DNA of 64,000 nucleotides, taken from the NCBI GenBank assembly GCA_028707125.1, contig JAQTUX010000001.1, forward strand, positions 205,639-269,638. Reading direction: 5' to 3'. The notes under the pieces were generated by a model. It saw only the letters and a list, made by a program, of their open reading frames with translations, had not been told where the DNA came from and did not search any database. Made by a program: the position numbers and the translations under genes. Shown here piece by piece: positions 4,353 to 61,090 of this stretch. Each line of letters opens with the position of its first letter. Within the stretch, counting starts at the first letter, position 1. The DNA is from Candidatus Omnitrophota bacterium (GTDB lineage: Bacteria > Omnitrophota > Gorgyraeia > Gygaellales > JAQTUX01).

Positions 4353-5027
4353 ATGGAGCTTATTGCCTCTTTATTTGAGCCGGGGATTTTCCTGCTGATC
4401 GCGGGAGGCCTGCTTGGGCTGTCGGGATTTGTCGTGTTTATGATCATACGCGAGAGGTCCATGCAGAGGATAGAGATAGAGTCCCAACAGGACCATCTTA
4501 AGGAATTGGAGATCGCCATTGAAGAGGAAACGCAGCGCAAGACCAAAGACATCTCGGCAAAACTTGAGTCCCTGGAGAATGAGGTCCGGGAAAAGGCGGC
4601 GTTTAAGCTCAAGGCCGAGGAGCTGCAGGCAGAGCTTGATAAGTCGCAAGGGGAGATGGCAAAACTCGAAGCGGCCCTTAAAGAGAAGGCGGCATCCCCG
4701 GATAAGGCAGCCGGCAAAACAGCCTTACAGGGAGAATTAGAAAAGGAAAGAGATACGCTTAAGAAAGAACTCGCCGGAGCCAGGGAAGAGGTGAGGCAGG
4801 CAAGGCAGGACCTTGCCAATGCCAAGGAGATGTACGAGGATCTGAAACTGCAGTTTGAAGACCTTAAAGAAAAAGCGCCGCAGGCGGAAGAAAAGGCGCC
4901 CGGCGAGGAAAAACCCCGCGTGGTAAGCCCGGAGACCTCTTCAAAGATCCTGGAAGCCCTCAGGGAACTTAAACAGTCGGAACAGAAGAAACCCCCGGAA
5001 GAGAAAAATACCGAAGAAAATAAATGA
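4353..5027 (+). CDS. Membrane-anchored coiled-coil protein, function unknown
   Basis: N-terminal transmembrane helix (IFLLIAGGLLGLSGFVVFMII). The rest is E/K/L-rich with heptad-like periodicity. The antisense S-rich ORF 4310..5131 is a low-complexity artefact. Confidence 0.45.
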   Translation: MELIASLFEPGIFLLIAGGLLGLSGFVVFMIIRERSMQRIEIESQQDHLKELEIAIEEETQRKTKDISAKLESLENEVREKAAFKLKAEELQAELDKSQGEMAKLEAALKEKAASPDKAAGKTALQGELEKERDTLKKELAGAREEVRQARQDLANAKEMYEDLKLQFEDLKEKAPQAEEKAPGEEKPRVVSPETSSKILEALRELKQSEQKKPPEEKNTEENK

Positions 5028-5170
5028 CTAATGACGAAATCCGAATGACGAATGAATGACAAATGACCAATGACTAAATGACCAAACAGAAATATATTTG
5101 GACATTGGACATTTAAGCATTGGACATTCATTCGACATTCGTCATTGGGTAATTCGACATTAAGATTTAG
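5028..5170. repeat. Palindromic intergenic repeat element, copy 1 (AATGAC/GTCATT and CCAAT/ATTGG word family)
   Basis: tgacgaatgaatgacaaatgaccaatgac...ttggacattggacatt...cattcgacattcgtcattgg. The left and right arms are approximately reverse-complementary. It fills the whole gap between two + strand genes. Confidence 0.6.
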
Positions 5171-5172
5171 AT

Positions 5173-6072
5173 ATGAGTATAATAGTATTAGGTACGGTCG
5201 CGCTGGATACGGTTAAGACCCCGCGGGGGCAGAGGAAAGAGATACTTGGCGGCTCCGCCGTTCATTTCGCGATGTCCGCGCGCCTGTTCACGAAGGTGAA
5301 TCTCGTGGCGATCGTGGGAGAGGACTTTCCCCAGAAGCACATCGAGTTTTTACGCGGCAAAGGCGTGATCCTCACTTCGCTGATCAAGGAAAAAGGCAGG
5401 ACCTTCCGCTGGGAGGGCGAATACAAGGGCGACCTGAACAGCGCCCTCACCAAGAGCACGGAGCTGGGAGTGTTGTCCGCTTTCAGGCCCAGCGTCGCGC
5501 GGCACCAGAGGCATATCAAATACATTTTTCTGGCGAACGTTGACCCTGATATACAGTCGCATATGCTTTCCAGTATGCGCGAGCCGAAATTCGTGGGTTT
5601 GGACAGTATGAATTTCTGGATAAATACAAAGAGAAGGTCATTGCTTAAATTGATAAAGAAGGTGAATATATTTGTGTTGAACGACTCGGAGGCGAGGAGT
5701 TTAACAGGAGAGCATAACCTTATTAAGGCCGCCGGGCGCCTGATATCTTCAGGGCCGCCTATGGTCATGATAAAGAAAGGCGAACACGGAGTCATCTTCA
5801 AGAGTAAGGATTTATTATTCTGCCTGCCGGCGTTTCCTACGGAGCAGGTGGTTGATCCTACCGGCGCGGGCGATACATTCGCCGGCGGATTTATGGGTTA
5901 TCTCGCCCGGCAAGGCAGCATCAATAACGCGTCTGTGCGCAGGGCAATATCCTACGCCACTGTGATGGCGTCTTTTAATGTGGAGGGTTTCGGCGTAGAG
6001 AGGACGCGGCGGCTGACGTTGACAGAGGTCAACGGCCGGCTTAAGGAATTCAGAGAGTTTATTAAATTCTAA
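5173..6072 (+). CDS. PfkB-family carbohydrate/nucleoside kinase
   Basis: Ribokinase-like fold signature DPTGAGDTFAGGF near the C-terminus. The N-terminal substrate-binding region is glycine-rich. Confidence 0.7.
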   Translation: MSIIVLGTVALDTVKTPRGQRKEILGGSAVHFAMSARLFTKVNLVAIVGEDFPQKHIEFLRGKGVILTSLIKEKGRTFRWEGEYKGDLNSALTKSTELGVLSAFRPSVARHQRHIKYIFLANVDPDIQSHMLSSMREPKFVGLDSMNFWINTKRRSLLKLIKKVNIFVLNDSEARSLTGEHNLIKAAGRLISSGPPMVMIKKGEHGVIFKSKDLLFCLPAFPTEQVVDPTGAGDTFAGGFMGYLARQGSINNASVRRAISYATVMASFNVEGFGVERTRRLTLTEVNGRLKEFREFIKF

Positions 6073-16454: not shown

Positions 16455-16500
16455 ACCCTTGACATTTTACTGTGGCAAACTGATAATAAAATGTCAAGGG
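16455..16500. promoter_or_regulatory. Perfect 15-bp inverted repeat overlapping a TTGACA -35 box (candidate operator/promoter upstream of the nifU-like gene and Ca-ATPase)
   Basis: ACCCTTGACATTTTA-N17-TAAAATGTCAAGGGT. It is preceded by a 13-bp stem hairpin (GGACATAAGTTAT...ATAACTTATATGTCC) after metW. Confidence 0.4.
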
Positions 16501-16531
16501 TCTGCTCATTAAACAAACCGGAGGATGAGAT

Positions 16532-19517: not shown

Positions 19518-19571
19518 ATGAGTTGCGGGAGCTGCGGGCCAAGGAAAAAGAAGAAGAAAAAGAAGAAGTAG
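19518..19571 (+). CDS. Candidate 17-codon small ORF MSCGSCGPRKKKKKKKK
   Basis: GGAGGTG lies 5 nt upstream of the ATG. A CxxC pair is followed by eight consecutive AAG/AAA lysine codons and TAG. A perfect 16-bp hairpin begins 16 nt downstream. Not verifiable from sequence alone. Confidence 0.2.
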   Translation: MSCGSCGPRKKKKKKKK

Positions 19572-19586
19572 CGGAGAAGGACGTTT

Positions 19587-19651
19587 CGTCATTGTGAGCC
19601 CCGCCCTTTTGGGTAGTATACAGAGCGCTAACTAACCAAAAGGGCGGGGCT
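19587..19651 (+). other. Perfect 16-bp stem hairpin (AGCCCCGCCCTTTTGG...CCAAAAGGGCGGGGCT) without a following T-tract
   Basis: Direct reading. The loop is 22 nt. The stem ends at 19651, 9 nt before the ATG of the next gene (19660). Confidence 0.6.
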
Positions 19652-26338: not shown

Positions 26339-26367
26339 GGTATTGGGTAATCAGGGAATTGGGATAT

Positions 26368-28446
26368 ATGGATAAAGGCATTTTTATTACGGGGACCGAC
26401 ACAGGCGTGGGCAAGACGGTTGTCAGCGCGCTTCTCGCGCGTTATTTAAAGAGAGAGGGCGTTGGTGCCTGTGTTATGAAGCCCATACAGACAGGCGCGC
26501 TTTATTCAGGGGATCGGCTGATCAGCCAGGACGCGGAATTCGTAAGAAAGGCGGCCGGGATGAGCAGGGAAGAGGCATCTTCTTCTTACCTGCATAAACT
26601 CCCGCTGTCGCCGTACGCGGCATTTAACAGCCGGCAGAGAAAGAAAATGATAAAGGCGATCCTGGACGCGTTTAACGCGTTGCGCCTCAAATATGAATTT
26701 GTAATTGTGGAGGGCTCAGGCGGTATAATGGCGCCCATTGACACTGATTATAATATGGCGCATCTTGCTCAGGATATGGGGCTGCCGGTCATTATTGTCT
26801 CGCGTCCCGGCCTCGGCACATTAAATCATACCTTGCTGACGATAGAGTATGCCCGGGCATCGGGGCTTGAGGTTAAAGGCGTAATAATGAATCATGCCCA
26901 CGGCGTCAAAGTGGACTTAAGCGCCGGTAAAAACGCCGGGATCATAGAGAAAATAAGCGGAGTCCCGCTCATAGGCCGCGTTCCTCATATAAAAGGCATT
27001 GACGTGGAGAGGATGAAGGCGGGCGGGTTACCCGGCGGCAATAAAATTTACATTGATACGAAGCCGGTTATTAATGACGGGCCTGTCAATAAGCGCGGCA
27101 CCGGTTTGCTGCGGGATTGGGACAAGAAGTTTATCTGGCACCCCTTTACACAGATGCGGGAATGGGTTGAGGATGAGCCGCTGGTGATCACCGAAGGCAG
27201 AGGCAGTTACCTTAAGGATTCCCAGGGAAAGTGGTATTTAGACGGGGTCTCCAGCCTCTGGGTGAATGTGCACGGGCACAGGAAAAAAGAGATAGATCAG
27301 GCGCTAAGGCGGCAATTAAACAAGATAGCGCACTCCACGTTCCTTGGCTTGTCCAATGATACGGCGATCTTGCTCTCAAAACGGTTAATTGAGATCGCCC
27401 CCGGGGATCTCAACAAGGTATTTTATTCCGACAGCGGCTCAACAGCGGTTGAGGCCGCCCTCAAGATGGCATTTCAATACTGGCAGCAAAAAGAGCCACG
27501 GCTGAAGGCGAAAAGGAAATTTATTTCTTTTGTTAACGCCTACCATGGAGACACTGTCGGCTCTGTCAGCGTGGGCGGGATCGATTTATTTCATAAGATA
27601 TACAGGCCGCTTTTGTTCGGCACCATAAAGGCAAAGGCGCCGTATTGCTACCGTTGTCCTTTGGGCAAGGTATATCCACAATGCCGGTTAAAATGCCTGA
27701 AAGAAACGGAGGACATTCTAAAGAAGCAACATAAAAGCATCGCCGGCGTCATAATAGAGCCGATGGCGCAGGCAGCGGCCGGCATACTCACTCAGCCCGC
27801 GGGTTATTTGAGGCAGTTGCGCCGGCTTTGCGATAAATACGATGTGCTGATGATCCTGGATGAGGTGGCGGTGGGCTTCGGCAGGACAGGCAGGATGTTC
27901 GCCTGTGAACAGGAAGGGGTTAAGCCCGACATCCTCTGCCTGGCAAAGGGCTTGAGCGCGGGATATCTTCCGCTGGCAGCAACGCTGGCTACGGACGAGA
28001 TATACAAGGCGTTTCTAGGCGATTACGCCGGCAAAAAGACGTTTTTCCACGGCCACAGCTATACAGCTAATCCCCTGGGATGCGCCGCGGCACTGGCAAA
28101 TCTTGAGGTTTTCAGAAAAGAGCGTACCTTGGAAATGGTTCAGGAAAAGATAAGGTTTCTGCGTAAGGGATTAAAAAGATTTTATGAACTGAAGGCCGTA
28201 GGCGATGTCCGCCAGGCGGGCCTGATCGCGGGCATTGAGTTGGTCAAGAACAGAAAGACAAAACAGCCGTATAAATGGGAGGAGAAAACAGGCATCAGGG
28301 TTACGCGGCAGGCGCGTAAATACGGGGTGATCCTGCGGCCTTTAGGTAATGTGATCGTGCTGTTCCCGCCGCTTTCAATATCTCTGCCGGAGTTGGAAGA
28401 ATTGCTGGATGTGACATATAGATCAATTGAAGAAGTAACAAGTTAA
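26368..28446 (+). CDS. bioDA: Fused dethiobiotin synthetase / adenosylmethionine-8-amino-7-oxononanoate aminotransferase (BioD-BioA single polypeptide)
   Basis: N-terminal BioD P-loop GTDTGVGKT with the following about 230 aa. The C-terminal about 430 aa is a class III aminotransferase (BioA). The probable start is the ATG at 26368, because 26359 is TTG. Confidence 0.85.
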   Translation: MDKGIFITGTDTGVGKTVVSALLARYLKREGVGACVMKPIQTGALYSGDRLISQDAEFVRKAAGMSREEASSSYLHKLPLSPYAAFNSRQRKKMIKAILDAFNALRLKYEFVIVEGSGGIMAPIDTDYNMAHLAQDMGLPVIIVSRPGLGTLNHTLLTIEYARASGLEVKGVIMNHAHGVKVDLSAGKNAGIIEKISGVPLIGRVPHIKGIDVERMKAGGLPGGNKIYIDTKPVINDGPVNKRGTGLLRDWDKKFIWHPFTQMREWVEDEPLVITEGRGSYLKDSQGKWYLDGVSSLWVNVHGHRKKEIDQALRRQLNKIAHSTFLGLSNDTAILLSKRLIEIAPGDLNKVFYSDSGSTAVEAALKMAFQYWQQKEPRLKAKRKFISFVNAYHGDTVGSVSVGGIDLFHKIYRPLLFGTIKAKAPYCYRCPLGKVYPQCRLKCLKETEDILKKQHKSIAGVIIEPMAQAAAGILTQPAGYLRQLRRLCDKYDVLMILDEVAVGFGRTGRMFACEQEGVKPDILCLAKGLSAGYLPLAATLATDEIYKAFLGDYAGKKTFFHGHSYTANPLGCAAALANLEVFRKERTLEMVQEKIRFLRKGLKRFYELKAVGDVRQAGLIAGIELVKNRKTKQPYKWEEKTGIRVTRQARKYGVILRPLGNVIVLFPPLSISLPELEELLDVTYRSIEEVTS

Positions 28447-28578
28447 AAGCGGATATTAGGTGATTTGGTGATCAGGGTCTGGGGATTAGGATATAAGGAG
28501 ATTGGGGACAAATACCTAATATCCCAATCTCCCAATATCCAGACCCCAATACCCTAATTACCCAATACCCGCATTAAG
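28447..28578. repeat. Palindromic intergenic repeat element, copy 2 (CCCAAT/ATTGGG-rich subfamily)
   Basis: ggtgatcagggtctggggattaggatataaggagattgggga...tcccaatctcccaatatccagaccccaatagcctaattacccaat. The arms are approximately reverse-complementary. Confidence 0.55.
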
Positions 28579-28588
28579 CGTGTTTAGC

Positions 28589-29665
28589 ATGAAGAGTAAT
28601 ATGCGTGTAGTAGTAGCAATGAGCGGAGGGGTGGATTCTTCAGTGGCAGCCGCGCTCCTAAAGGCGCGGGGCTGCGAGGTGATCGGGATGACCATGTGTT
28701 TTAATATCTCCGGCCCGGGGGGCGGGAGGCCGTCCTGCTGCGGCAGAGAGGCAATAGAAGATGCCAGGCGCGTTGCCGGCTCGCTCGGCATCAGGCATTA
28801 CGCGTTGAATTTCGCGAAGCCGCTTCAAGATAAAATTATAGATGATTTTTGCGGTGAGTATCTCAACGGGCGCACGCCCAATCCCTGCGTAAGGTGTAAT
28901 CAGTATTTAAAATTCGGCGTACTTCTTGACAAGGCAAGGTCGCTTGATGCCGATTTCCTTGCCACAGGGCATTACGCGAGGGTGTGTTTTGACAAAGGGC
29001 TGAATAAGTTCCTGCTTAAGAAGGCAAAGGATACCCGCAAAGACCAGTCATATTTTCTTTATCGGCTAAAACAGCGCCAGCTAAGGCATATCTTAATGCC
29101 GTTGGGTGATCATACGAAGGAGGAGGTAAGAAATTACGCCAGGCGGCTGGGCCTGCCTGTGGCAGACAAGGCAGGCAGCCAGGAGGTGTGTTTCATCCCG
29201 GATAACGATTACAGGGGTTTTATCCTTTCGCGTTTCAAAGAGCGGATCAAAGAGGGTGATATCGTTGACAGGCAGGGGAAGGTGTTGGGCAGGCATAAGG
29301 GCATATGTTTTTATACGATAGGCCAGCGCGAAGGATTGGGGATCGCCTATAAGTCCCCTTTGTATATAACAGGTATAGACAAGAGGCGCAACAGGATAAT
29401 AGCCGGCCCCAGGCAGGATACCTACAGGGATGAGTTTCTTGTAAGGAGCCCTACATTTATATATACCGCTATACCGGACGGCGGGCTTGCGCTTACTGTT
29501 AAAATAAGATATAATAATATAGGTAAAGAAGGCCGCGTCATACCCATCAGTAAAAGCCTGCTTAAGGTCAAATTACACAGGCCTGAGCAGTCCATAACCC
29601 CCGGACAATCAGCGGTATTTTATAAAGGGGATGTAGTTGTCGGTGGAGGGATAATCAGGCAATGA
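28589..29665 (+). CDS. mnmA: tRNA-specific 2-thiouridylase
   Basis: SGGVDSSVAA PP-loop, the catalytic Cys region NPCVRCNQYLKF, and a C-terminal beta-barrel domain. Confidence 0.85.
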   Translation: MKSNMRVVVAMSGGVDSSVAAALLKARGCEVIGMTMCFNISGPGGGRPSCCGREAIEDARRVAGSLGIRHYALNFAKPLQDKIIDDFCGEYLNGRTPNPCVRCNQYLKFGVLLDKARSLDADFLATGHYARVCFDKGLNKFLLKKAKDTRKDQSYFLYRLKQRQLRHILMPLGDHTKEEVRNYARRLGLPVADKAGSQEVCFIPDNDYRGFILSRFKERIKEGDIVDRQGKVLGRHKGICFYTIGQREGLGIAYKSPLYITGIDKRRNRIIAGPRQDTYRDEFLVRSPTFIYTAIPDGGLALTVKIRYNNIGKEGRVIPISKSLLKVKLHRPEQSITPGQSAVFYKGDVVVGGGIIRQ

Positions 29666-30635: not shown

Positions 30636-30722
30636 TTTTCAGCCGATAAAGGCAAACCCGCAGGAATGCGGGGGCGCAAAGTTAGCGGCCCGGAACGGGC
30701 GGCGCGACTACCGAAGATGGAA
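30636..30722 (+). ncRNA. c-di-GMP-I (GEMM) riboswitch aptamer candidate
   Basis: The sequence aaaGGCAAACCcgcaGGAAtgcgGGGGCGCAAAGttagcggcccgGAAcgggcggcgcgacUACCGAAGAUGG matches the GEMM-I core segment by segment. The segments are GGCAAACC, a tetraloop hairpin, GGGRCGCAAAGC, a second tetraloop hairpin, and a closing ACCGAnGG. Confidence 0.6.
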
Positions 30723-30788: not shown

Positions 30789-32471
30789 ATGAAGATCGGA
30801 TCTGATCGGAAAAAATATACCGCGTGTATTATTGCGTTTATTTTTGCATGCGAGGCAGTTTTTTCACCCAGTGTATCTGCCGCGGAAGACGAGGCGGACA
30901 ACATCTGGGAGCCGGCGTATGCCTATAATTGCCAGATCACCTGGCGCAGGGATAGCTGCACAGGCAAGGGATATATGCCTAACCGCGTTACTACCTATGC
31001 CCGGGACGAAGAAACAGGCAGCCGCTATCTTGATAGTTACCGCAGGGTTGATTACAGCTGCGACAGGGAACCGGGGCTGGGTTCAATACTGGTGATCAAC
31101 GGCTACAGCAGGTATTTCAGATTTCCCGACGGCTCGCGCCACACAGAATCATGGGACCAGTCCGGGTGGAGAGAGGCGCACCGTTATGCGGATGGCAGCA
31201 ACGACATCCGCAGCGGGGATGAGCCGCTGGACTGGATCGAGGTATATGCCGAGGATTACCGGGCGCAGACATTCAAAGACCACGTTTATTTCATGGCCAA
31301 AATAATTGCCGAGCAGAACCTGCTCGCCTGTTGTAACACTCCGGGATTCTCTGAACTCTGCCGTAAGGCGGAGGATGTGTTTGACAGGGCAGGGGCTGAT
31401 AGCGTAAAAAGGGCGCTGCACTTACGGGGCGACCTCTTTGAAACAAGGGCCGTATATCCCTGGCTCTGTTATAATTCTGATCCGGCCCGTCCCAATATCA
31501 ACTATACTAAACTCTTTGATTCTGAGGAGAGAATGTACAGGACGCTGGCTGCTCTGGAGTTGCTTTCGGCGGCCCCTGTTGTGGGCGGGGCAGCGGAAAC
31601 AATGGCAGGGCTTATTGAGGCAAGGCAGGGCAATTATAATCGGCTGTTCACGGCTCCGGCGGCATTCATATTCGGCGGCCTGGCTGTCAGGGGAGTATTC
31701 GGCGCCGCGGCGAGGATAGCGGCAATAGCAAGGAATCTGGGCATAATGAAGGCGATAGTCAACAATGTGTTCAGGCCCGTCAAACATTTTGCGGGGAGGT
31801 ATATCGTGTCCCCCATGATCAGAAATGCCGCGCATCTAAGATGGGGCGTTGAATCACTGCGGCAATATTGCTTCAGGATAGAAAACAGAGGGGTCGACGC
31901 GTTCGCGTTGGACAAGATCAATGAGATGAATGAGATCGTAAACGGCCTGGAGGAAGGCATAGCCCGTAAAGTTAACGATATGATGCTGCCTTTCTTTAAA
32001 TTCCTGGATAAGAACGGGCACGAGGTTGTGGATGAGGTCATAGGCGAAAATTCAAGCGCGTCAAGGATCTGGGAGCGGTTTGGAAGGGACGCGGATAATG
32101 TGTTTGATGAGGCAAGGGGCGCCTTTGAGAGGTTCACCGATCTCCTCGCGGCAAACAGCGACGATACGGCAACTGCCGCGCGGATGCTGAACTCCGCGGA
32201 GAGAAGCATCATAGATGAGATGGAAGAGCTGTTTGACGCCATAGACATTGATGATTACGAAAGATTCACGGAGCAGGTAGGCGAGTTAAAAGGGTTGCTT
32301 GACAGGCAGATGCCCATACTGCAGGCCTTAAACAGCGCGGCGACATGGAGCCAGGCGAACAGGTATTTAAGCGCGGGCCGGGCCGAAGCGGCAATGGCTG
32401 AATATATGAGGAATCTCAGGGGGTTCTATATACAACTGGACAACCTGTACAAGGACATTGCAAGCCATTAG
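30789..32471 (+). CDS. Secreted protein of unknown function (signal peptide, possible lipoprotein)
   Basis: The N-terminus MKIGSDRKKYTACIIAFIFACEAVFSPSVSAAED is signal-like. There are no recognisable catalytic motifs. The protein is Cys/Trp/Arg-rich at the N-terminus and a helical Ala-rich region follows. Confidence 0.45.
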   Translation: MKIGSDRKKYTACIIAFIFACEAVFSPSVSAAEDEADNIWEPAYAYNCQITWRRDSCTGKGYMPNRVTTYARDEETGSRYLDSYRRVDYSCDREPGLGSILVINGYSRYFRFPDGSRHTESWDQSGWREAHRYADGSNDIRSGDEPLDWIEVYAEDYRAQTFKDHVYFMAKIIAEQNLLACCNTPGFSELCRKAEDVFDRAGADSVKRALHLRGDLFETRAVYPWLCYNSDPARPNINYTKLFDSEERMYRTLAALELLSAAPVVGGAAETMAGLIEARQGNYNRLFTAPAAFIFGGLAVRGVFGAAARIAAIARNLGIMKAIVNNVFRPVKHFAGRYIVSPMIRNAAHLRWGVESLRQYCFRIENRGVDAFALDKINEMNEIVNGLEEGIARKVNDMMLPFFKFLDKNGHEVVDEVIGENSSASRIWERFGRDADNVFDEARGAFERFTDLLAANSDDTATAARMLNSAERSIIDEMEELFDAIDIDDYERFTEQVGELKGLLDRQMPILQALNSAATWSQANRYLSAGRAEAAMAEYMRNLRGFYIQLDNLYKDIASH

Positions 32472-41313: not shown

Positions 41314-41535
41314 ATGAGCGATAATATCTTTCTTATCAAGGACTTAAGCCAGCTGAGCGGACATTCTGTCTATACGCTCAAGTATTATCTTCGTTTAGGG
41401 CTGATAAAGGAATCCGGCAGGAGCCCTGAGACGGGTTTCAGGTATTTTAATCAGGATAACCTGGAGGCGTTAAAGAGGATCAGGGAACTGCAGGTCCAGG
41501 GCAGGACGCTGAAAGAAATAAAGGCGTTATTATGA
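41314..41535 (+). CDS. MerR-family HTH DNA-binding protein (73 aa, no effector domain)
   Basis: IKDLSQLSGHSVYTLKYYLRLGLI matches the MerR HTH. Confidence 0.5.
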   Translation: MSDNIFLIKDLSQLSGHSVYTLKYYLRLGLIKESGRSPETGFRYFNQDNLEALKRIRELQVQGRTLKEIKALL

Positions 41536-42347
41536 GCTACTACACGATATTCGGTTTGGAAAAAGAGCCGTTCTCTACCAGCCCCGATCCTCACTTTTTT
41601 TATTTATCCCAGGCGCACAATACGGCATTGAAAAGGGCGGAGATCAATATACGCCTGCGGCGCGGTTTAAGTTTGATACTCGGCGACGTGGGCACAGGCA
41701 AGACCACGCTTTCCCGGATGCTGCTGCAGACATTTGAGGGGGATGAAGATTTTGAATTCTATATGATACTGGACCCCGATTATAAATCAGAGTATCAATT
41801 CCTTGTCAACCTCGCCAAGATGTTCAAGCTCGACCCCCTGTTAAAATCAACCCTTGATTATAAAGAGGCGATAGAAAAATACCTTTTCCACAAAGGCGTG
41901 GACGAAAATAAGGTGATCGTGCTTTTGATCGACGAGGGCCAGAAGCTTAATCCCAATCAGTTAGAGACGCTGCGCACGCTGCTCAATTATGAGACCAACG
42001 AATATAAGCTGCTGCAGCTGGTGATACTGGCGCAGGTGGAGCTGCTGCCGCGCGTGAGAAAGATACGCAACTTTATGGACAGGGTGTCGTTAAAATATAT
42101 TATAAACCCCCTGGATATGCAGGAGACAAAGCAGATGATAAATTTCCGCCTGAGCCAGGCAGGCAGGAACGGAAGAGGGGGGCTTTTTGACGAAGGCGCC
42201 TGCGGGCTCATCTATCAATATACTCAAGGATACCCCCGTAAGATCGCCCTGCTCTGCCACAACGCGATGGAGCTGGCGGTAATGCGCGATAAGGACAGCG
42301 TTGATAAAGAGATCGTGGAAGAGGTGATAAGGAACGACGTTAGATGA
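41532..42347 (+). CDS. ExeA/GspA-like AAA ATPase
   Basis: The N-terminus FGLEKEPFSTSPDPHFFYLSQAHNTAL followed by the Walker A GDVGTGKTTL is the ExeA-family pattern. Confidence 0.6.
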   Translation: MSYYTIFGLEKEPFSTSPDPHFFYLSQAHNTALKRAEINIRLRRGLSLILGDVGTGKTTLSRMLLQTFEGDEDFEFYMILDPDYKSEYQFLVNLAKMFKLDPLLKSTLDYKEAIEKYLFHKGVDENKVIVLLIDEGQKLNPNQLETLRTLLNYETNEYKLLQLVILAQVELLPRVRKIRNFMDRVSLKYIINPLDMQETKQMINFRLSQAGRNGRGGLFDEGACGLIYQYTQGYPRKIALLCHNAMELAVMRDKDSVDKEIVEEVIRNDVR

Positions 42348-42964
42348 ACAATCCGGGAGACGTTTCGCCCGAGGAGAAACTCCTTCGGCTTATAAAGAAC
42401 AAACCGGGGAAGAGAAAGGATGAGGCAGCGCCCGCGGCGGTTGATTTGAGCGCCCCTGCCGCGGCGGGAAAGATAAATTTTCAGGCGCTGGCAGGGTTTG
42501 ACCCGAAAATTATAAACAATGTCCTGACGGCGCTGGCGCTGATTTTTCTGGCGTACCTGCTGGCGGACTTCCTGTTTTTGTCGCCTTCTTTTCGCAATGA
42601 GCTGCAGCGTATCAAGAATGCGGCCCCCGGGGAAGAGCCGGATATAATTGAGGCGATCAGCCCCATGCCTTATTCATATTATTCCGAGCAGGTCAAAGGC
42701 AAAAACCTGTTCAGGTCAACGGCGAGAAGGGAGAGCCAGGCGGGCGGCGCCCCCAAAAAGGAATTAAGGGAGTTGATAAAAGACCTGGCGTTGATAGGCA
42801 TAATCGCCGATGAAGAGCCGCAGGCGATAATAGAAGACAGGGCGACCAGGCAGAGTTATTTCCTCAAAAAGGGAGAGGGCGTCAACGGATTGGAAGTGGC
42901 GGAAATAAAAGAAAATAAAGTCGTATTTGAATATCAGGGAGAGAGAGTTGACCTTTACTTATAG
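42344..42964 (+). CDS. GspC/PilP-like (or ExeB-like) secretin-interacting protein
   Basis: A single transmembrane helix and a C-terminal beta-rich segment (GIIADEEPQAIIEDRATRQSYFLKKGEGVNGLEVAEIKENKVVFEYQGERVDL) like HR/PilP domains. Confidence 0.35.
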   Translation: MNNPGDVSPEEKLLRLIKNKPGKRKDEAAPAAVDLSAPAAAGKINFQALAGFDPKIINNVLTALALIFLAYLLADFLFLSPSFRNELQRIKNAAPGEEPDIIEAISPMPYSYYSEQVKGKNLFRSTARRESQAGGAPKKELRELIKDLALIGIIADEEPQAIIEDRATRQSYFLKKGEGVNGLEVAEIKENKVVFEYQGERVDLYL

Positions 42965-42975
42965 GGGGGGCAGAG

Positions 42976-44970
42976 ATGTTTAAGTTAAAGACCGCCTTTT
43001 TTCTTATGGGATTGTTGAGTTGCCTGTTTTCTCCGGCGATCGCGCGGGAAGAAGGGCTTCCTCCGGAAGAACAACCGGTTATTGACGAGCGTTTCCTGGA
43101 GGAGATGCCTCCTGAGGAATGGATGAAACAGCCGGAACCGGAAGAGGGGATGTTACCTGAGACAGAGCCGCTGTTCTCTCCGCCCTCCGCCTCGCCTCAA
43201 GTTCCTGAGGACGGCCGGCAGGAGGGCAAGATATCCCTTGATATAAAGGGCATGAATATCCTTGATGTGCTTAAATTGATCTCCCAGCGTTCAGGGATGA
43301 ATATCGTGGCAGGCCGCAATGTGTCGGGCCGCGTTACGATGTTCATCAGGGATGTTGAGCCGATAGACGCGCTGGAGGTGATCCTGGCGGCAAACGGGCT
43401 TGCCTACGAGAAGAAGGGCGGCATCATCAATATCATGTCAGCGCGGGATTACGAGCTTGCCCACGGAGACAAGTTTGATGATAAAAAGGAGTTTACCACG
43501 ATCAAATTACAATATGCCCAGGCAGCCACCCTGAGCAAGGCCTTGACCACGGTAAAAAGCGCCCTGGGCAAGGTGGTTGTGGATGAAAGCAGCAATACCC
43601 TGATAATCCTGGATATGCCGGAAAAGATAAAGCAGATGAAACAGATAATAAAAGACGCGGACAAGCCGATAGTCACAAAGGTATTTAACCTGCAGTACGG
43701 AACAGCTGAAGACATGAAGGCCGCATTACAGGAAAAGGTGACAAAGAATATCGGCACGCTGACCATTGACGCGCGCACGAACAAGCTGGCGATCAGGGAT
43801 TATCCGGAGAAGATAAATGAACTGACGGAAGTCATCCAGCAGTTTGACGAGAAGCCAAAACAGGTTCTCATCGAGGCAAGAATCATAAAGATTGACTTAG
43901 ACGATGAATTCAAGTTCGGTATTGATTGGGACTACTGGTTGGAAAAGTATTTCAGGGTTACTCAGTCATTTAAGCCAACCGCTAGCAAGGGTACCGCCAC
44001 GGTATTTACTTTCGGGCCAAGTACAATCAATGCAAAAGAAGAATATCGGGGAATAATGAATATGATAAGTTATTTTGGTAAGACAGAGACCCTATCCACT
44101 CCCCGCATAATAGTGCTGAATAATCAAGAGGCAAAAGTTTTACTCGGTAATAAAGAATCATATATTGAGAGCACCACGTCGCAGTCAGGCACTGGTACGC
44201 AGGTAACGGCACAGGAAATTAAATTTATAGAAGGCGGAGTTAAATTGTCTGTAACTCCAACCATAAATGACGAGGGTTATATTACGATGAAGATAAAACC
44301 CGAAGTAAGCACAGCAGGACTTACGCCCATTACTGTCAGCGGTCAAACTACGCAGGTGCCCACGTTTAATACCTCAGAAGCGGAGAGTACGGTAATGGTG
44401 AAAGACGGCGCTACCATACTTATCGCGGGTTTGATTAAAAACGTAGATACGAAGAGCCGTAATAAAATTCCTCTTATGGGAGATGTCCCGCTTATTGGAA
44501 ACTTGTTCAGGCAGAACAACAATCTGGTGCAGAAGAATGAACTGGTTATTTTCCTCACGCCGACAATTGTAAGCGGTAGTAAGGTTGTTGAGTATAAAGG
44601 GGAAGCTGAAACACCGAGATTAGAAGATATGCAGAGAGACGCGGCTGATGATCCGATGATCAAAAAGGCGGCGCTGCCCTCGGAGGGCTTCAGGAATTTC
44701 CTGGAATATTCCGATTTTGTCTCAAGAAAGATAAGCCAGACAGCGAAGGAGAACGCGGGCCAGACCTCGGAGTCGGGCAGGGTCACGGTTTCTTTTATAT
44801 TGCTGTCCACCGGAGAGATCCAGGATAAGCCGCGGGTCGTATCGTCTACGAATGAGCTGTTGAACAACCTTGCTCTTAAGAACGTAATGGAGTCGGCGCC
44901 TTTTCCGCCGTTTTACAGGCTTTCTGAGAAAAATATGGAGCGGTTCAGGATAGCGATATCGTATAATTAA
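42976..44970 (+). CDS. gspD: Secretin (GspD/PilQ family)
   Basis: Signal peptide, secretin N domains (RDVEPIDALEVILAANGLAYEKKGGIINI) and the C-terminal secretin domain (LSTPRIIVLNNQEAKV...IPLMGDVPLIGNLFRQNNNLVQKNELVIFLTPTIV). Confidence 0.85.
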   Translation: MFKLKTAFFLMGLLSCLFSPAIAREEGLPPEEQPVIDERFLEEMPPEEWMKQPEPEEGMLPETEPLFSPPSASPQVPEDGRQEGKISLDIKGMNILDVLKLISQRSGMNIVAGRNVSGRVTMFIRDVEPIDALEVILAANGLAYEKKGGIINIMSARDYELAHGDKFDDKKEFTTIKLQYAQAATLSKALTTVKSALGKVVVDESSNTLIILDMPEKIKQMKQIIKDADKPIVTKVFNLQYGTAEDMKAALQEKVTKNIGTLTIDARTNKLAIRDYPEKINELTEVIQQFDEKPKQVLIEARIIKIDLDDEFKFGIDWDYWLEKYFRVTQSFKPTASKGTATVFTFGPSTINAKEEYRGIMNMISYFGKTETLSTPRIIVLNNQEAKVLLGNKESYIESTTSQSGTGTQVTAQEIKFIEGGVKLSVTPTINDEGYITMKIKPEVSTAGLTPITVSGQTTQVPTFNTSEAESTVMVKDGATILIAGLIKNVDTKSRNKIPLMGDVPLIGNLFRQNNNLVQKNELVIFLTPTIVSGSKVVEYKGEAETPRLEDMQRDAADDPMIKKAALPSEGFRNFLEYSDFVSRKISQTAKENAGQTSESGRVTVSFILLSTGEIQDKPRVVSSTNELLNNLALKNVMESAPFPPFYRLSEKNMERFRIAISYN

Positions 44971-45100
44971 ATGACAAATGACGAGTAAATTTCCAATGAC
45001 CAATTACCAATGTCAAATAAATTCCCAATTACCCAATGTCCAATTGGGAATTGTTAATTGGTCATTTATTGGGATTTGGTCATTGGCGAATTGGGAATTG
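44971..45100. repeat. Palindromic intergenic repeat element, copy 3
   Basis: atgacaaatgacgag...ccaatgaccaattaccaatgtc...cccaattacccaatgtccaattgggaattg...ttggtcatttattgggatttggtcattgg. It is built from the same words and has internally reverse-complementary arms. Confidence 0.55.
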
Positions 45101-45102
45101 AC

Positions 45103-45729
45103 ATGCTGAGAACTATCAGAGTAGTGTATGAGGACGCTCATCTATTGGTCGTGGAAAAGCCGGCGGGGATGCTGACTGTGGCAACGGTCAAGAATGAACG
45201 CGGGACGCTGGTCAATATTTTAAGGGACGAGGGCTACAGGGTGTATCCCTGCCACCGGCTGGACAGGGATACTTCGGGCTTGATCATGTTCGCCAAAGAC
45301 AAAAATACGCTGGATAAGATGCGGCAGCAGTTCCGGGAGCACAACGTGAGAAAGGCCTACAAGGCAATAGTGCAGGGCTCCCTGCAGAGAAAAGGCGGCA
45401 CGATAAGTTACGATATCATTGAAAAGGGCGTAAAAAAACCCGCCCGCACCGACTATGTGGTGCTTGAATCCAATCCCTTGTTCACGCTGGCAGAGGTGCG
45501 CCCCTTGACAGGCAGGACAAATCAGATAAGGATACACTTCAAACAGATAGGCCATCCGCTGGTAGGCGAGAGAAAATTTTTTCTGGCAAAGAGATCCGGA
45601 GTTAAATTCAGGAGGGCCGCCTTGCATGCCGAACGCCTGGATTTCAGGCATCCTTACACCGGAGAAAAGATACGGCTGAGAAGCGCGCTGCCTAAAGACA
45701 TGGAAAACTTCTTGAGAGGAACAAAATGA
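45103..45729 (+). CDS. RluA-family pseudouridine synthase
   Basis: HRLDRDTSGLIMFAK catalytic-Asp motif. The start is taken at the ATG at 45103, downstream of the repeat. Confidence 0.8.
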   Translation: MLRTIRVVYEDAHLLVVEKPAGMLTVATVKNERGTLVNILRDEGYRVYPCHRLDRDTSGLIMFAKDKNTLDKMRQQFREHNVRKAYKAIVQGSLQRKGGTISYDIIEKGVKKPARTDYVVLESNPLFTLAEVRPLTGRTNQIRIHFKQIGHPLVGERKFFLAKRSGVKFRRAALHAERLDFRHPYTGEKIRLRSALPKDMENFLRGTK

Positions 45730-48700
45730 AAAAGACAAACCAATGTAAATACTACCTGAATAACAGCGATGAATTCGTGATCGAAAATTATAATCAGGCG
45801 CGGCCGTTTTCCTCGTTCTTTCCCGGGATCGCGGGGCTCTTCGGCATACCTATGTGGGTGTTTTACGCCAACCGCGGCCAGTGCATTTCCAGCTTCGGCG
45901 TGCGGGACAAGGACAACCCCATACTTGAATTTTATCCCGCGAACAAGGCCTACCAGCATACGGGCCGGCTGGGCTTCCGCACATTTATAAAGATAAAGAA
46001 AAACGGCAAAGAGGCCTTCTACGAGCCGTTCCAGCGGGCATCCGGCAACCGCATGCGCGTACGCCCTTACGAATTGTCGCTGGAAGAGTCCGATCCCGCG
46101 TCGGGCCTGCGCGTCAAGGTGGAATATTTTACCTTGCCCAACGAAAATTTCGCGGCGCTGGCAAGGATGGTTGAGATAACCAACGAGTCATCCAGGGTAA
46201 TTCCCATCCAGGTATTGGACGGCCTGCCGCAGGTCATCCCCTTCGGCATAAATAATTTTTTCCTGAAGGAAATGCACCGCACCATAGAGTCATGGATGAG
46301 GGTGGAGAACCTGGAGAATAACGCCGCGTTCCTGCGGCTGGCGGTTGACCCGCGCGACAGGTCTGAAGTCGTGCATCTTGAGGAGGGCAATTTCTTCTTA
46401 GGGTTTTCCGACGAGGGAGGGCTGCTCGCCCCCATAGTTGACCCCAGGGCGGTATTCGGCCAACAAGGCGACTTTTCTTCCCCCCGGATTTATCTTCAAG
46501 GGGATTTCAGGCATCCGGCGTTTCAGCTGACGCAGAGCATAACGCCCTGCGCCTTCGTATTCAAGAAGGCCGCGCTTGCAGCCGGCAAGGGCATCAGGTT
46601 GTATTCGCTGTTCGGCCATATGAGGAATATTGAAATACTGCGGCAGAAGGCGGGGGCCATCAGCCGCGGCAGTTATTTCAAGCGCAAACGGGAAGAGAAC
46701 AAATCCCTGATCGAGTCGCTGGAGGCGAATTGTTTTACCGCCAGCAGCGATAAGGCGTTTGACCTTTATTGCCGGCAGACGTTCCTGGACAACTGCCTGA
46801 GGGGCGGCTTCCCCCACAGTTTTGAATATGACGGCAATTCAACTATCTATGTCTATTCCCGCAAACACGGAGACCCTGAGCGCGACTATAACAGGTTCGC
46901 GCTTAACCCCACGTACCTGTCCGAAGGCAACGGTAATTTCCGCGACGTAAACCAGAACAGGAGAAGCGACTGCCTGTTCAATCCCCGCCTGGGCGACCTG
47001 AATCTTAAGACGTTTTTTAACCTGCAGCAGTTAGACGGCTATAACCCGCTGGTGATAAAAGAGAACATCTTTATCCTGGCCGAAGCAAAGAAGTCCGAAG
47101 AGGCATTGAAGAGGTTCTTTAAGGAGGGCGATATCGGCTGTGTCCTGCCGCTTCTGGAGGGGCAGTTTAACATAGGAAAATTTTTAACGCAGATTGACGA
47201 CAAGGGTATCAGGATAAAGGGCGCGCCGGAGGCGTTGATCCATTTTCTCTTCCTTAATTCATCAAGGGTCCAGGATGCCGAGTTCGGCGAGGGATACTGG
47301 TCGGACCATTGGCAGTATAATATTGACCTGCTGGAGAACTACCTCTCCGTCTTTCCCGAGCGGCTCAAATATATACTGCTTGAAGACAGGGGTTTCAGCT
47401 TTTACGACACCGCCGAGAGCGTCCAGCCGCGCGGCGCCAGATACGTTGTTAAGGACGGTAAGGTAAGGCAGTTCCACTGCCTGGCCAGGCACGGCGATAA
47501 GAAAAAGATGCTCGCGGAGCGCCAGGCAGAGCCGCATAAAGTTAGGGTTGATTTTGGCCGGGGCGAGGTCTACCATACCACTCTTTTAGTAAAACTCTTA
47601 ACGCTTATCCTGAATAAACTCGCCACGCTGGATCCTTTCGGCGTAGGCATAGAGATGGAGGCGGATAAACCCAACTGGTTTGACGCGTTGAACGGCCTGC
47701 CTGCCCTGCTTGGTTCATCCTCCTGCGAGACATTTGAGTTAAAGCGGCTGATCGTTCTTTTATCCGGCCTGCTGAAAGGCCTGCCGCGAGATACGATAGC
47801 AGGGATCCCCGAAGAATTGAAGTCGTTTATGGATGACCTGACGGCCGCGATAGAGAGCTATCTGAACTCCGGCGTAAAAACAAGGGATTTTGACTATTGG
47901 GACAGAAGCAACGGTATTAAGGAAGCATTCAGGAAGAGGACGTTCTTTGGCGTAAGCGGTAAGGAAGTTGAGGTGGGGATAAAAGAGGTGGCCTCTTTTC
48001 TGGAGAGCGCGTCCAGGCGGATAGGATCATCGCTGAGCAGGGGGTTCGACAAGAAGAGAGGCGTATTTTTCAGTTATTTTATCAATGAGGTAAGCCGATA
48101 TAAGATCGAGGGAACAGCTGTCAAGCCGCTGGAATTTAAACAGAGCGCCTTGCCGCTTTTCCTGGAGGCAAACGTCCACGCCCTCAAGGTGTGCGCGGAT
48201 AGAGGCAAGGCAGAGGCGTTGTACCGCAATATAAAAAAGAGCCCGCTTTACGACAGGAAGCTGAAAATGTATAAGGTCTGCGCTTCTTTGAAAGGACAGC
48301 CGGAAGAATTAGGCAGGTGCGTGATCTTTACGCCCGGATGGCTGGAGAACGAATCGATCTGGCTGCATATGGAATACAAATATCTTCTGGAGCTGCTTAA
48401 GGCAGGGCTGTATGAGGAATATTTCCGCGAATTACATAATACGCTGGTTTGTTTTCAGAGGCCGGAGGTTTATTCAAGGAGCATCCTTGAGAATTCTTCA
48501 TTCATTGTATCCAGCGCCTTTCCCGACCAGTCAATGCACGGGGCGGGGTTTGTGGCGCGGCTGTCCGGCTCAACCGCGGAACTCATTAATATATGGCTGG
48601 TCATGTGCGCGGGCAAGGCGCCGTTTTTCCTGGGCAAGGATGGGAAGCTGTCCCTTAGATTCGAGCCGGCGCTTGAGGGCGGATTCTTCTTGGACAGGGC

Positions 48701-48974
48701 GGCGGAGTTTGAGCTGCCTTCCGGCAAGTCAGCGCTGAAACTGAAATTGTCCAGAGGCGACTTCGCGTTCAGGTTCCTGAATTCAGCGCTGGTCGTATAT
48801 CATAATCCGCGGAGAAAGGACACCTTCGGCGGCAAAGGGGCCCGCGTAAAAGAGATCAAGTTCAGGGATAAAGACGGCGCGGCGCACAGCATAGAGGACG
48901 GATATATTCCCGCGCCTTTTGCGGGGCAGGTGCGGGACGGGTTGATCGATAGGATAGATATTATTTTAAGGTAG
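45726..48974 (+). CDS. Large (1082 aa) GH94/GT36-like six-hairpin glycoside phosphorylase/hydrolase family protein, divergent
   Basis: GNFRDVNQNRRSD and ADKPNWFDALNGLP parallel the RDxxQD and DWNDGLD motifs in the 686..3349 protein. The substrate is unknown. Confidence 0.4.
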   Translation: MKKTNQCKYYLNNSDEFVIENYNQARPFSSFFPGIAGLFGIPMWVFYANRGQCISSFGVRDKDNPILEFYPANKAYQHTGRLGFRTFIKIKKNGKEAFYEPFQRASGNRMRVRPYELSLEESDPASGLRVKVEYFTLPNENFAALARMVEITNESSRVIPIQVLDGLPQVIPFGINNFFLKEMHRTIESWMRVENLENNAAFLRLAVDPRDRSEVVHLEEGNFFLGFSDEGGLLAPIVDPRAVFGQQGDFSSPRIYLQGDFRHPAFQLTQSITPCAFVFKKAALAAGKGIRLYSLFGHMRNIEILRQKAGAISRGSYFKRKREENKSLIESLEANCFTASSDKAFDLYCRQTFLDNCLRGGFPHSFEYDGNSTIYVYSRKHGDPERDYNRFALNPTYLSEGNGNFRDVNQNRRSDCLFNPRLGDLNLKTFFNLQQLDGYNPLVIKENIFILAEAKKSEEALKRFFKEGDIGCVLPLLEGQFNIGKFLTQIDDKGIRIKGAPEALIHFLFLNSSRVQDAEFGEGYWSDHWQYNIDLLENYLSVFPERLKYILLEDRGFSFYDTAESVQPRGARYVVKDGKVRQFHCLARHGDKKKMLAERQAEPHKVRVDFGRGEVYHTTLLVKLLTLILNKLATLDPFGVGIEMEADKPNWFDALNGLPALLGSSSCETFELKRLIVLLSGLLKGLPRDTIAGIPEELKSFMDDLTAAIESYLNSGVKTRDFDYWDRSNGIKEAFRKRTFFGVSGKEVEVGIKEVASFLESASRRIGSSLSRGFDKKRGVFFSYFINEVSRYKIEGTAVKPLEFKQSALPLFLEANVHALKVCADRGKAEALYRNIKKSPLYDRKLKMYKVCASLKGQPEELGRCVIFTPGWLENESIWLHMEYKYLLELLKAGLYEEYFRELHNTLVCFQRPEVYSRSILENSSFIVSSAFPDQSMHGAGFVARLSGSTAELINIWLVMCAGKAPFFLGKDGKLSLRFEPALEGGFFLDRAAEFELPSGKSALKLKLSRGDFAFRFLNSALVVYHNPRRKDTFGGKGARVKEIKFRDKDGAAHSIEDGYIPAPFAGQVRDGLIDRIDIILR

Positions 48975-48977
48975 TTA

Positions 48978-49140
48978 ATTTTCGGTTACGTTTGTCGGTC
49001 AGGGTTACGGCTACGTATCGGTAACGGTATTCGGTTACGGTTGTCGTTTACGTAACCTGAACCGTTACACGCAACCGATACATAACCGTAACCTGAACCG
49101 TAACCGATAGACGAGATATCGGTGTTGATGTATATAAAAA
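48978..49140. repeat. Heptamer-based (GGTTACG / CGTAACC) imperfect long palindrome
   Basis: cggttacgtttgtcggtcagggttacggctacgtatcggtaacggtattcggttacggttgtcgtttacg | cgtaacctgaaccgttacacgcaaccgatacataaccgtaacctgaaccgtaaccgat. It fills the gap after the large GH94-like gene. Confidence 0.55.
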
Positions 49141-52194: not shown

Positions 52195-52197
52195 TAT

Positions 52198-57026: not shown

Positions 57027-57027
57027 T

Positions 57028-58707: not shown

Positions 58708-58850
58708 ATACAATAAATGACCAATGGCCAAGCTCCAATGACGAATGAAATCACAATGACCCAAATCCCAAACAGGAAATATAAATTGGGTATTGGGATT
58801 TGGACATTCATTCGTCATTGTGATTTGGTAATTGTTACATTATTCTGTAA
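58708..58850 (+). repeat. Palindromic intergenic repeat element, copy 4 (forward orientation)
   Basis: aatgaccaatggccaagctccaatgacgaatgaaatcacaatgacccaaatcccaa...ttgggtattgggatttggacattcattcgtcattgtgatttgg. It is about 90% identical to the reverse complement of copy 5. Confidence 0.65.
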
Positions 58851-58868
58851 TTGGATATTGATTCCAAG

Positions 58869-59399: not shown

Positions 59400-59448
59400 A
59401 TAGAGAATAGTGTTGCATTGATGATGATATTTTGATATAAAATGAGAT

Positions 59449-60948: not shown

Positions 60949-60949
60949 A

Positions 60950-61090
60950 TAAATGATAATTCACAATTACCAAATCCCAATGACGAATGAATGTCCAAAT
61001 CCCAATACCCAATTTGTATTCTTTATTTGGGACTTGGGTCATTGTGATTTCATTCGTCATTGGAGCTTGGACATTGGTCATTATTAGCCA
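60950..61090 (-). repeat. Palindromic intergenic repeat element, copy 5 (inverted relative to copy 4)
   Basis: Its reverse complement aligns with copy 4 at about 90% identity over about 120 nt. The six-frame artefact ORFs 58717..58899(+) and 60842..61081(-) translate to near-identical peptides. Confidence 0.65.

Follow-up and report, generated by a model that had tools for sequence, protein, structure and literature searches.

The 64,000-nt stretch of Candidatus Omnitrophota bacterium DNA analysed here (contig JAQTUX010000001.1, positions 205,639 to 269,638; hereafter the window) carries at least six intergenic palindromes, 110-145 nt long and written in three vocabularies of short words. Four of them, elements A, C, D and E, are built from degenerate heptamers of the SAATGAC type and, judged by their sequence, constitute one family that is common to other Omnitrophota. 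Comparison of dispersed copies shows that whole elements have been copied to new intergenic sites. On balance, the elements are probably a noncoding, dispersed hairpin repeat that resembles REPs, ERICs and MITEs (miniature inverted-repeat transposable elements), is of the heptamer kind represented by the STRRs, and most plausibly acts as a hairpin at the 3' ends or processing sites of mRNA. The best-supported view is that they are tolerated, and perhaps used, at gene 3' ends, and kept palindromic there.

Palindromes assembled from heptamers

An earlier, sequence-only reading of the window had pointed out five AT-rich palindromic sites between genes, and all five lie where it placed them. No inverted repeats in the 64 kb are stronger than these five (arms of 36-45 nt, 74-78% complementary), and their folds lie far beyond those of shuffled sequences, with z scores from -3.1 to -7.6 for the + strand RNA, from -2.6 to -9.2 for the - strand RNA and from -2.9 to -8.4 for the DNA. 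The same reading had allowed for five or more copies, and a sixth palindrome absent from its list, element F, was indeed found. The GC content of the elements is 0.32-0.43, compared with mostly 0.47-0.56 in 2-kb windows of the stretch. The elements are listed below, with the numbers of the inverted repeats (I) and the scores of R1, a covariance model made from other DNA and described in the next section.

Element A, 5023-5168, no strand assigned: SAATGAC-type heptamer palindrome between a hypothetical gene (4353-5027) upstream and a PfkB kinase gene (5173-6072) downstream; inverted repeats I1, I5 and I10; RNA fold -46.5 kcal/mol, z -7.6; lag-7 autocorrelation 0.61; R1 54.2 bits, E 7.5e-11, full length.
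Element B, 28449-28572, no strand assigned: 7-8-nt GGGNATT / CCCAAT units, G/T-rich arm first, between a BioD-BioA fusion gene (26359-28446) and mnmA (28580-29665); inverted repeat I2; fold z -5.9 and -8.3; lag-8 peak 0.57; R1 14.4 bits, E 0.93.
Element C, 44970-45100, no strand assigned: heptamer palindrome of the SAATGAC/CAATTAC type, with a secretin gene (42976-44970) on one side and an RluA-like pseudouridine synthase gene (ATG at 45103) on the other; inverted repeats I6 and I7; fold z -3.1; R1 64.8 and 58.8 bits, E 1.5e-13.
Element D, 58716-58842, + strand: SAATGAC-type palindrome between gspE/pulE (57028-58707) and a T2SSJ-like pseudopilin gene (58869-59399); inverted repeat I3; fold z -4.6; R1 85.3 bits, E 9e-19.
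Element E, 60958-61084, - strand: inverted-orientation copy of D between a Big_13-domain gene (59449-60948) and a very large open reading frame (ORF; 61153 to the window end); inverted repeat I4; fold z -5.9; R1 89.6 bits, E 7e-20.
Element F, 48980-49115 (approximate), no strand assigned: 6-7-nt GGTTACG / CGTAACC units, G/T-rich arm first, starting 5 nt after the stop of a 1082-aa ORF (45726-48974); RNA folds -59.3 (z -5.0) and -64.8 (z -7.0), DNA fold z -5.6; period at lag 6-7; no R1 match.

Each arm of the SAATGAC-type palindromes is a run of 6-8 degenerate 7-nt units, 45-60 nt long in total, with the unit consensus SAAWNNC. The units in the window are CAATGAC, which is the commonest, CAAATCC, GAATGTC, CAATTAC and similar words, and the GAATGAC form is found in high-GC hosts. 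The heptamer period is evident from the lag-7 autocorrelation (0.61 in A, 0.51 in C, 0.50 in D and 0.59 in E, compared with 0.25 in control sequence) and from the distance between successive SAA starts, which is exactly 7 nt in 36 of the 58 intervals in the window. Furthermore, the word pair AATGACNAATGAC, with at most one mismatch, occurs 13 times in the window against 0.15 expected, and all 13 occurrences lie within A, C, D and E. The units of an arm are unlike one another and stand in a set order, such as CAATGGC CAAGCTC CAATGAC GAATGAA in D; no arm is a tandem iteration of a single heptamer, the longest run being three units with an identical core (in A).

The A-rich arm comes first on both strands (4 versus 0 in the window, 11 versus 2 among the non-seed clusters of related loci), and this polarity is a true structural property of the palindrome, independent of the strand that is read. 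The opposite polarity, with the G/T-rich arm first, occurs in B and F, which are sister families with the same architecture and other unit words. Element B had been described as a CCCAAT-rich subfamily of the other four, an assignment that conflicts with its 8-nt period, its GGGNATT/CCCAAT units, its opposite arm order and its R1 E value. The antisense RNA is slightly more stable than the sense RNA in four of the five originally listed elements, so that there is no sign of selection on one transcript strand.

Copies at unrelated loci and across phyla

The copying of whole elements is documented by several sets of dispersed copies. Over about 125 nt, elements D and E agree at about 92% of positions, in opposite orientations and at unrelated loci. 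This identity explains the mirrored pseudo-peptides that ORF callers draw from D on the + strand and E on the - strand; these were correctly noticed in the earlier reading and are near-identical over about 40 aa. A 27-mer specific to D and E was found in a single metagenome contig, L121 (L numbers are labels of the loci compared), whose copy is 92% identical to D and 91% to E over 113 nt and is flanked by unrelated genes, yicC-like and gmk-like as judged by eye from the sequence. Two loci of one Omnitrophota metagenome-assembled genome (MAG), L050 and L105, hold elements that are 95% identical in unrelated flanks. The most extensive set is that of the Phycisphaeraceae MAG SO_2016_LW3_70, with at least 11 copies (L038, L093, L099, L107, L076, L011, L059, L071, L082, L094 and L010) whose ends are sharp, AATGACGAATGACG...CGTCATTCGTCATT, and whose unlike units follow one order throughout. 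The arms are 85-90% identical, and the GC-rich centres of 13-24 nt are unalignable.

These copies bear directly on the view that the palindromes are a pure mutational by-product, arising in place by slippage of heptamer simple-sequence repeats and by template-switch mirroring, with neither copying between loci nor function. Among the long simple-sequence repeats of bacteria, heptamers are indeed the most abundant class, and slippage of the polymerase has been put forward as their cause, as the work of Mrazek (2007) is summarised in PMC4679880 and PMC4692102; Xanthomonas heptamer arrays keep their loci and vary in length (PMC4692102), and the window holds three unrelated vocabularies side by side. 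However, about 92% of positions agree over 113-125 nt among D, E and L121, which have their order of unlike units and their arm mismatches in common and lie in unrelated flanks, and the eleven Phycisphaeraceae copies share their unit order and sharp ends. A unit order held in common at unrelated loci rules out independent slippage as the source of the SAATGAC family, and we regard the by-product explanation as very unlikely.

The elements also vary in presence at one orthologous site. In the Verrucomicrobia locus L097, the gap holds a full element, and the upstream ORF ends with the TGA of the first AAATGAC unit; in its relative L022, the orthologous gap is about 45 nt long and contains no element. 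Two features expected of a MITE are found, namely terminal inverted repeats, the whole element being an imperfect palindrome, and near-identical copies at unrelated loci (D/E/L121, L050/L105) combined with presence or absence at an orthologous site (L097/L022).

The GspE of the window is 100% identical to an NCBI protein annotated as belonging to a Candidatus Omnitrophica bacterium MAG, and the next relative is 62% identical. The nearest relatives of the window (GspE 57-62% identical) keep the gene order secretin, GspE, (TPR), pseudopilin, Big_13 and giant protein, and no palindromes occur in about 50 kb of them, which establishes patchiness and provides no precise insertion sites. D and E bracket exactly two genes (58716-61084), those of the T2SSJ-like pseudopilin and the Big_13-domain protein. 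Recombination between D and E would invert a 2.1-kb segment; the relatives lack the repeats and share this gene order, and the inverted arrangement was not observed.

The family extends well beyond this genome. The strict pattern AATGACGAATGAAN{45,75}TTCATTCG, which matches A, D and E and would be expected to match random sequence of 596 Gb about 8 times by chance, was found at 120 or more loci of a genome collection. The PVC (Planctomycetes-Verrucomicrobia-Chlamydiae) superphylum contributes 99 among the 120 matches listed, which are distributed as follows according to their record titles:

Planctomycetota: 49 loci among the matches listed
Verrucomicrobiota: 42 loci among the matches listed
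Bacteroidota: 10 loci among the matches listed
Omnitrophota: 7 loci among the matches listed
Deltaproteobacteria / Desulfobacterales: 6 loci among the matches listed
Chlamydiota: 1 locus among the matches listed
Others: 5 loci among the matches listed, some of them chance-like (e.g., L040)

The anatomy is nearly uniform across these loci, with a 5' arm of GAATGAC/GAAATCC/GAAGCTC/GAATGAA units, a short centre and a 3' arm that mirrors the first. The dialect of high-GC hosts is "CGAAT", and that of the Omnitrophota, including the window, is "CCAAT".

Membership of the window elements was assessed with R1, a covariance model built from ten elements of other Omnitrophota MAGs (UBA6233, S2.101, STD1_202) and the metagenome contig L121, with no window sequence in it. 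Run unfiltered on the window, R1 recognises E (89.6 bits), D (85.3), C (64.8) and A (54.2), in full length and on both strands (E values from 1e-11 to 1e-20); B is borderline and F is unmatched. It gave zero matches in four element-free Omnitrophota loci (labels within L122-L126). R1 likewise detects elements in full length at loci of Planctomycetota, Verrucomicrobiota and Bacteroidota, including copies outside the seed pattern, at 30-85 bits, scores that are inflated to an unknown degree because all loci were picked through a shared 21-base core. The palindromes had been taken to be specific to this genome, and the pattern and model matches contradict that.

Searches of other kinds returned nothing. 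No element matched Rfam at the gathering score or at E <= 1 in the window, nor was there a match at the gathering score in 18 related loci. The palindromic pattern had 0 matches in viral contigs; blastn of a plasmid collection with element A and the Phycisphaeraceae consensus gave no match, possibly through low-complexity masking; and a protein search across public data with the pseudo-peptides of the miscalled ORFs returned no candidates.

Gene neighbourhood and probable role

Every listed element occupies a gap between two + strand ORFs in the ORF map, and the functions of the genes flanking the five originally listed elements are mutually unrelated. Together the elements fill 6 of the approximately 12 intergenic gaps longer than 80 nt in the window, or about half. 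Nearly all genes of the 64 kb lie on the + strand, and the cumulative GC skew climbs steadily. The sites had been placed at the 3' ends of + strand operons; their intergenic position and + strand flanks are borne out, and the operon end is not, as D and E lie inside a conserved type II secretion/pilus cluster. The window contains two separate secretin-containing gene sets of the type II secretion / type IV pilus-like kind, at 41532-44970 and 50707-58707 (secretins at 42976-44970 and 53328-57026).

The gene context of the related loci was taken from GC3-aware gene calls, as stop-to-stop ORFs mislead in high-GC genomes, where spurious ORFs run through the elements. Among 93 elements, 78 lie in tandem gaps, 10 in convergent and 5 in divergent gaps. 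Measured from the upstream stop, the elements begin at a median of +2 nt (interquartile range -7 to +18), so that the stop codon often falls within the first units, and the next possible start codon follows the element end at a median of 22 nt. In the window, the TAA stop of the upstream gene overlaps the first unit of A; the upstream stop likewise overlaps the first unit of C, and the start codon of the next gene lies 3 nt past the end of C.

The first units carry TGA or TAA stops, and all frames are covered in most copies. As 7 is not a multiple of 3, the stops of successive TGA-bearing units fall in successive frames. With such units placed at or just inside gene 3' ends, the elements often supply the stop codon. 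That the 5' arm always stops all three frames was considered and rejected; this is a tendency only, and several copies keep one frame open.

The hairpin itself appears to be maintained. RNAalifold predicts 49 pairs in the Phycisphaeraceae alignment, in which pairs 19:120 and 20:119 change in concert, with a CG/UA split of 5:4 (CTC...GAG vs TCC...GGA). In two further pairs both partners have changed, and where one arm has a 1-nt insertion, the opposite arm shows its counterpart. When orthologous loci of related genomes are compared, conservation of the arms is close to that of the coding flanks, and the loop gathers many substitutions (L008/L088, L041/L086, L022/L097). Some arm mismatches, such as GAC opposite GTC, are common to Omnitrophota copies of different genomes. 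The conservation and covariation of the arms may come from selection for pairing or from hairpin-templated correction, that is, quasi-palindrome template switching, and the data fit either.

These observations suggest the following course of events. The units would arise and vary by 7-nt slippage, like other heptamer simple-sequence repeats, and either hairpin-templated correction or selection for the hairpin, or the two together, would keep the arms complementary. As the elements lie between co-oriented genes, they should be transcribed, and the RNA of such an element is predicted to form an imperfectly paired duplex whose stem measures roughly 50 nt. In either orientation, such a duplex could act as a barrier to 3' exonucleases that protects the mRNA 3' end, or as an intercistronic processing site of the RNase III type.

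A related explanation gives the host the leading part: the palindromes would be host-selected RNA elements, either bidirectional terminators/attenuators or intercistronic RNase III/mRNA-stability hairpins, that set the relative expression of their neighbours, and their multi-copy nature would be secondary. Their abutment on the upstream stop and their rarity in divergent gaps (5 of 93) fit this explanation, as do the arms that covary and are conserved while the loops drift, and the layout of an A-rich 5' arm and a T-rich 3' arm on both strands, which is that of a bidirectional terminator. STRR hairpins have likewise been proposed to stabilise transcripts or couple translation (PMC2670836). However, no element has a GC-rich stem followed by a U-tract, so that the canonical terminator was rejected; the terminator function that the sequence-only reading had put up for testing is not supported by sequence. 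Intrinsic terminator scans left A, B, E and F unflagged (the region of B judged by eye), gave totals not above those of shuffled sequence, and flagged only two weak internal mini-hairpins, in C (45032-45048) and in D (58730-58718, - strand). A strong terminator at D would split a conserved cluster, since gspE and the pseudopilin gene are adjacent, or have one gene between them, in the element-free relatives. Those relatives manage without the elements, and one orthologous gap is empty, which gives no evidence of a site-specific need. Finally, sense and antisense folds are similar, and the orientation of the asymmetric Omnitrophota consensus relative to transcription is random (7 same, 8 opposite). 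We therefore consider primary selection by the host unlikely.

A promoter was also considered and rejected; the sole 11/12 match (5154-5183) puts its -10 hexamer inside the PfkB ORF.

Another explanation operates on DNA: the elements would be arrays of binding sites for a conserved protein, for instance one of nucleoid organisation, replication or recombination, that reads SAATGAC heptamers or the cruciform, the head-to-head arms providing a symmetric site. The same small word set and arm polarity in distant phyla speak for it, as do the arm mismatches kept across Omnitrophota genomes, the symmetry of the elements, their indifference to the direction of transcription and the stability of the DNA hairpins; moreover, three units of 7 bp would span two helical turns. 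However, no candidate protein or gene association was found among the genes tested, and the patchy occurrence in related genomes argues against an essential chromosome function. The units are degenerate and variable in number, and B and F differ in words, yet share the architecture. A DNA-level site is thus quite unlikely in our judgement.

Integron attC-like recombination sites placed behind gene cassettes were considered as well. The attC sites end in the consensus RYYYAAC...GTTRRRY. An imperfect palindrome of 110-145 nt directly after a stop codon, with conserved arms and a variable centre, recalls such sites, and in L044, a 2.7-kb Omnitrophota contig, elements at 281-393, 1299-1410 and 2135-2265 occupy three successive gaps in a cassette-array-like layout. 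The L044 elements are separated by single housekeeping genes (ilvE-like, lolD-like). However, the flanks in general are housekeeping genes in conserved order (gspE, mnmA, bioDA, rluA, ilvE-like, lolD, rfbA), no integrase occurs among the genes in and around the loci examined, and the element ends, AATGAC...GTCATT, are unlike those of attC. The attC explanation was rejected on the housekeeping flanks, and we give it next to no weight.

The preferred reading, a dispersed heptamer hairpin repeat with a probable role at mRNA 3' ends, has several points against it, beginning with the inflation of the cross-phylum scores described above. No target-site duplication was found at D, E, L121, 12 Phycisphaeraceae copies or the filled L097 site. 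With regard to the copying mechanism, no transposase or REP-associated tyrosine transposase (RAYT), which the sequence-only reading had named in case one is encoded elsewhere, occurs among 20 window proteins tested or among the genes between element pairs, which in other loci are ordinary housekeeping genes. The dispersed copies share arms and not loops, whereas simple cut-and-paste or copy-and-paste of whole units predicts otherwise; arms shared without loops require either hypermutable loops, which are partly seen at orthologous loci, or a strong constraint on the arms. The RNA-level role is one that we infer from sequence. The recurrence of the same words across phyla is not explained by selfish spread alone and hints at a conserved trans-acting factor. 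Lastly, the census of the source genome covers the 64-kb window.

Three further features of the window lie apart from the elements. At 30642-30716 (+ strand), a c-di-GMP-I-GGC riboswitch aptamer (RF03167; 60.2 bits against a gathering score of 59, E 1e-11) lies in a 225-nt gap 5' of a 560-aa ORF (30789-32471). At 19519-19651, a tiny ORF with a good Shine-Dalgarno sequence encodes the product MSCGSCGPRKKKKKKKK*, and about 25 nt past it lies a GC-rich hairpin (19597-19651) with 21-nt arms that are 95% complementary and no U-tract. At 16455-16501, a perfect 15-nt inverted repeat, ACCCTTGACATTTTA / TAAAATGTCAAGGGT, overlaps a promoter-like TTGACA-17-GATAAT site just 5' of a small ORF, NifU-like by eye, in an operator-like layout.

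Relation to known repeats and significance

The SAATGAC elements are apparently an undescribed, widespread relative of the cyanobacterial STRR heptamer hairpins. STRRs are arrays of 7-bp repeats that form hairpins between genes such as hupS-hupL, for which a function in transcript stability or translational coupling has been suggested (PMC2670836). The elements studied here likewise consist of 7-bp units, are intergenic, often lie between co-transcribed genes and are able to form hairpins. They differ in their hosts, which are Omnitrophota, other PVC phyla and Bacteroidota instead of heterocystous cyanobacteria; in their arms, which are ordered series of unlike units and not one heptamer iterated; and in the recurrence of whole, near-identical palindromes of 110-145 nt at unrelated loci. 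The commonest unit of the window, CAATGAC, is a cyclic permutation of the reverse complement of TTGGTCA, which we take to be the STRR2 sequence of Mazel et al. 1990.

A second heptamer type is known from Xanthomonas, where about 185 GGGAATC arrays occur per genome; convergent inverted pairs, which can fold as stem-loops, account for 70-75 cases (Rehm et al. 2015, PMC4692102). These arrays lie on average 28 nt from the upstream ORF, mostly between co-oriented genes and rarely in divergent gaps, and a G-rich heptamer repeat, GGGGA(T/C)T, has been described in Nostoc (PMC4692102). The likeness lies in the intergenic, heterogeneous heptamer arrays, and element B, with its G-runs on one strand per arm, resembles this type. 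In contrast, the SAATGAC units of A, C, D and E are A/T-rich and lack G-quadruplex potential, and the Xanthomonas arrays change in length while remaining at orthologous loci, whereas here there is evidence of whole-element copying.

TAACTGA direct repeats of marine Beggiatoaceae, some Cyanobacteria and Bacteroidetes, which are patchily distributed, provide a third comparison (MacGregor 2015, PMC4679880). They stand as 2-6 direct copies just 5' of start codons, with one indirect repeat in 170 sets (PMC4679880). Both repeats are stop-bearing intergenic heptamers with a patchy spread across phyla that suggests horizontal transfer, and neither has an evident mechanism; the elements of the window differ in being palindromic, in lying at gene 3' ends and in their unit.

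Among repeats without heptamers, ERICs are enterobacterial imperfect palindromes of about 127 bp, and MITEs include the Correia and RUP elements; the RNA hairpins of ERICs and MITEs can alter the stability of flanking mRNA. The elements share with these families their size, the imperfect palindrome over the whole length, the location in transcribed gaps in either orientation and the many copies. Those families lack an internal 7-nt periodicity, and the present elements differ further in that no target-site duplication and no parent insertion sequence were seen, that the loop is unconserved among copies and that they occur in several phyla.

REPs are 20-40 nt long, with stems of 8-9 bp and a GTAG or CGTC tag (PMC3733652). 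Like the elements described here, REPs, BIMEs and REPINs are abundant extragenic palindromes that lie mostly at gene 3' ends and often form larger hairpins as inverted pairs (PMC3733652, PMC2817692, PMC3116915). The arms of 45-60 nt and the lack of a GTAG/CGTC tag at the ends set the elements apart, and a REP/RAYT system was rejected on size, on the tag and because no RAYT was seen among the genes tested. The resemblance to REP, BIME and MITE proposed in the sequence-only reading thus survives as a noncoding, multi-copy, hairpin-forming intergenic architecture, and fails in the size and tag of REPs and in target-site duplication. Its remark that the words belong to no described family holds for the SAATGAC palindromes as such, since exact-word and keyword searches of the literature found neither a description of them nor one of their spread through the PVC phyla or of heptamer palindromes being copied whole; hairpin-forming heptamer arrays, in contrast, are known (PMC2670836, PMC4692102).

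A more far-reaching idea, which is possible and still doubtful, is that the SAATGAC palindromes form an ancient superfamily across phyla (PVC, Bacteroidota and possibly the STRRs) whose words, polarity and mismatches are read by a conserved factor. If so, this factor might be a recombinase or transposase specific for hairpins, or else a protein that binds RNA or DNA with a 7-nt footprint, and the palindromes would be a counterpart of REP/RAYT in phyla where no such system is known. Conserved arms combined with unconserved loops would then point to an unusual form of copying, in which the hairpin is rebuilt from one arm.

For the organisms concerned, the elements matter because they recur across thousands of little-studied PVC and Bacteroidota genomes. 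They produce spurious small ORFs (MTNDE.../...SFVIRH peptides), which a model of the R1 type would remove from annotation, and some copies, such as that in the filled L097 gap, supply the real stop codon of the upstream gene. They also link the scattered heptamer reports of STRRs, Xanthomonas GGGAATC and Beggiatoaceae TAACTGA, to which it is a new addition that heptamer palindromes are copied whole from locus to locus and that one grammar is used across phyla. Cultured carriers exist (Luteolibacter sp. Populi, Chitinophaga fulva, C. solisilvae, C. varians, Hymenobacter sp. BT770 and Spirosoma arboris), and the function of heptamer repeats is therefore open to experiment.

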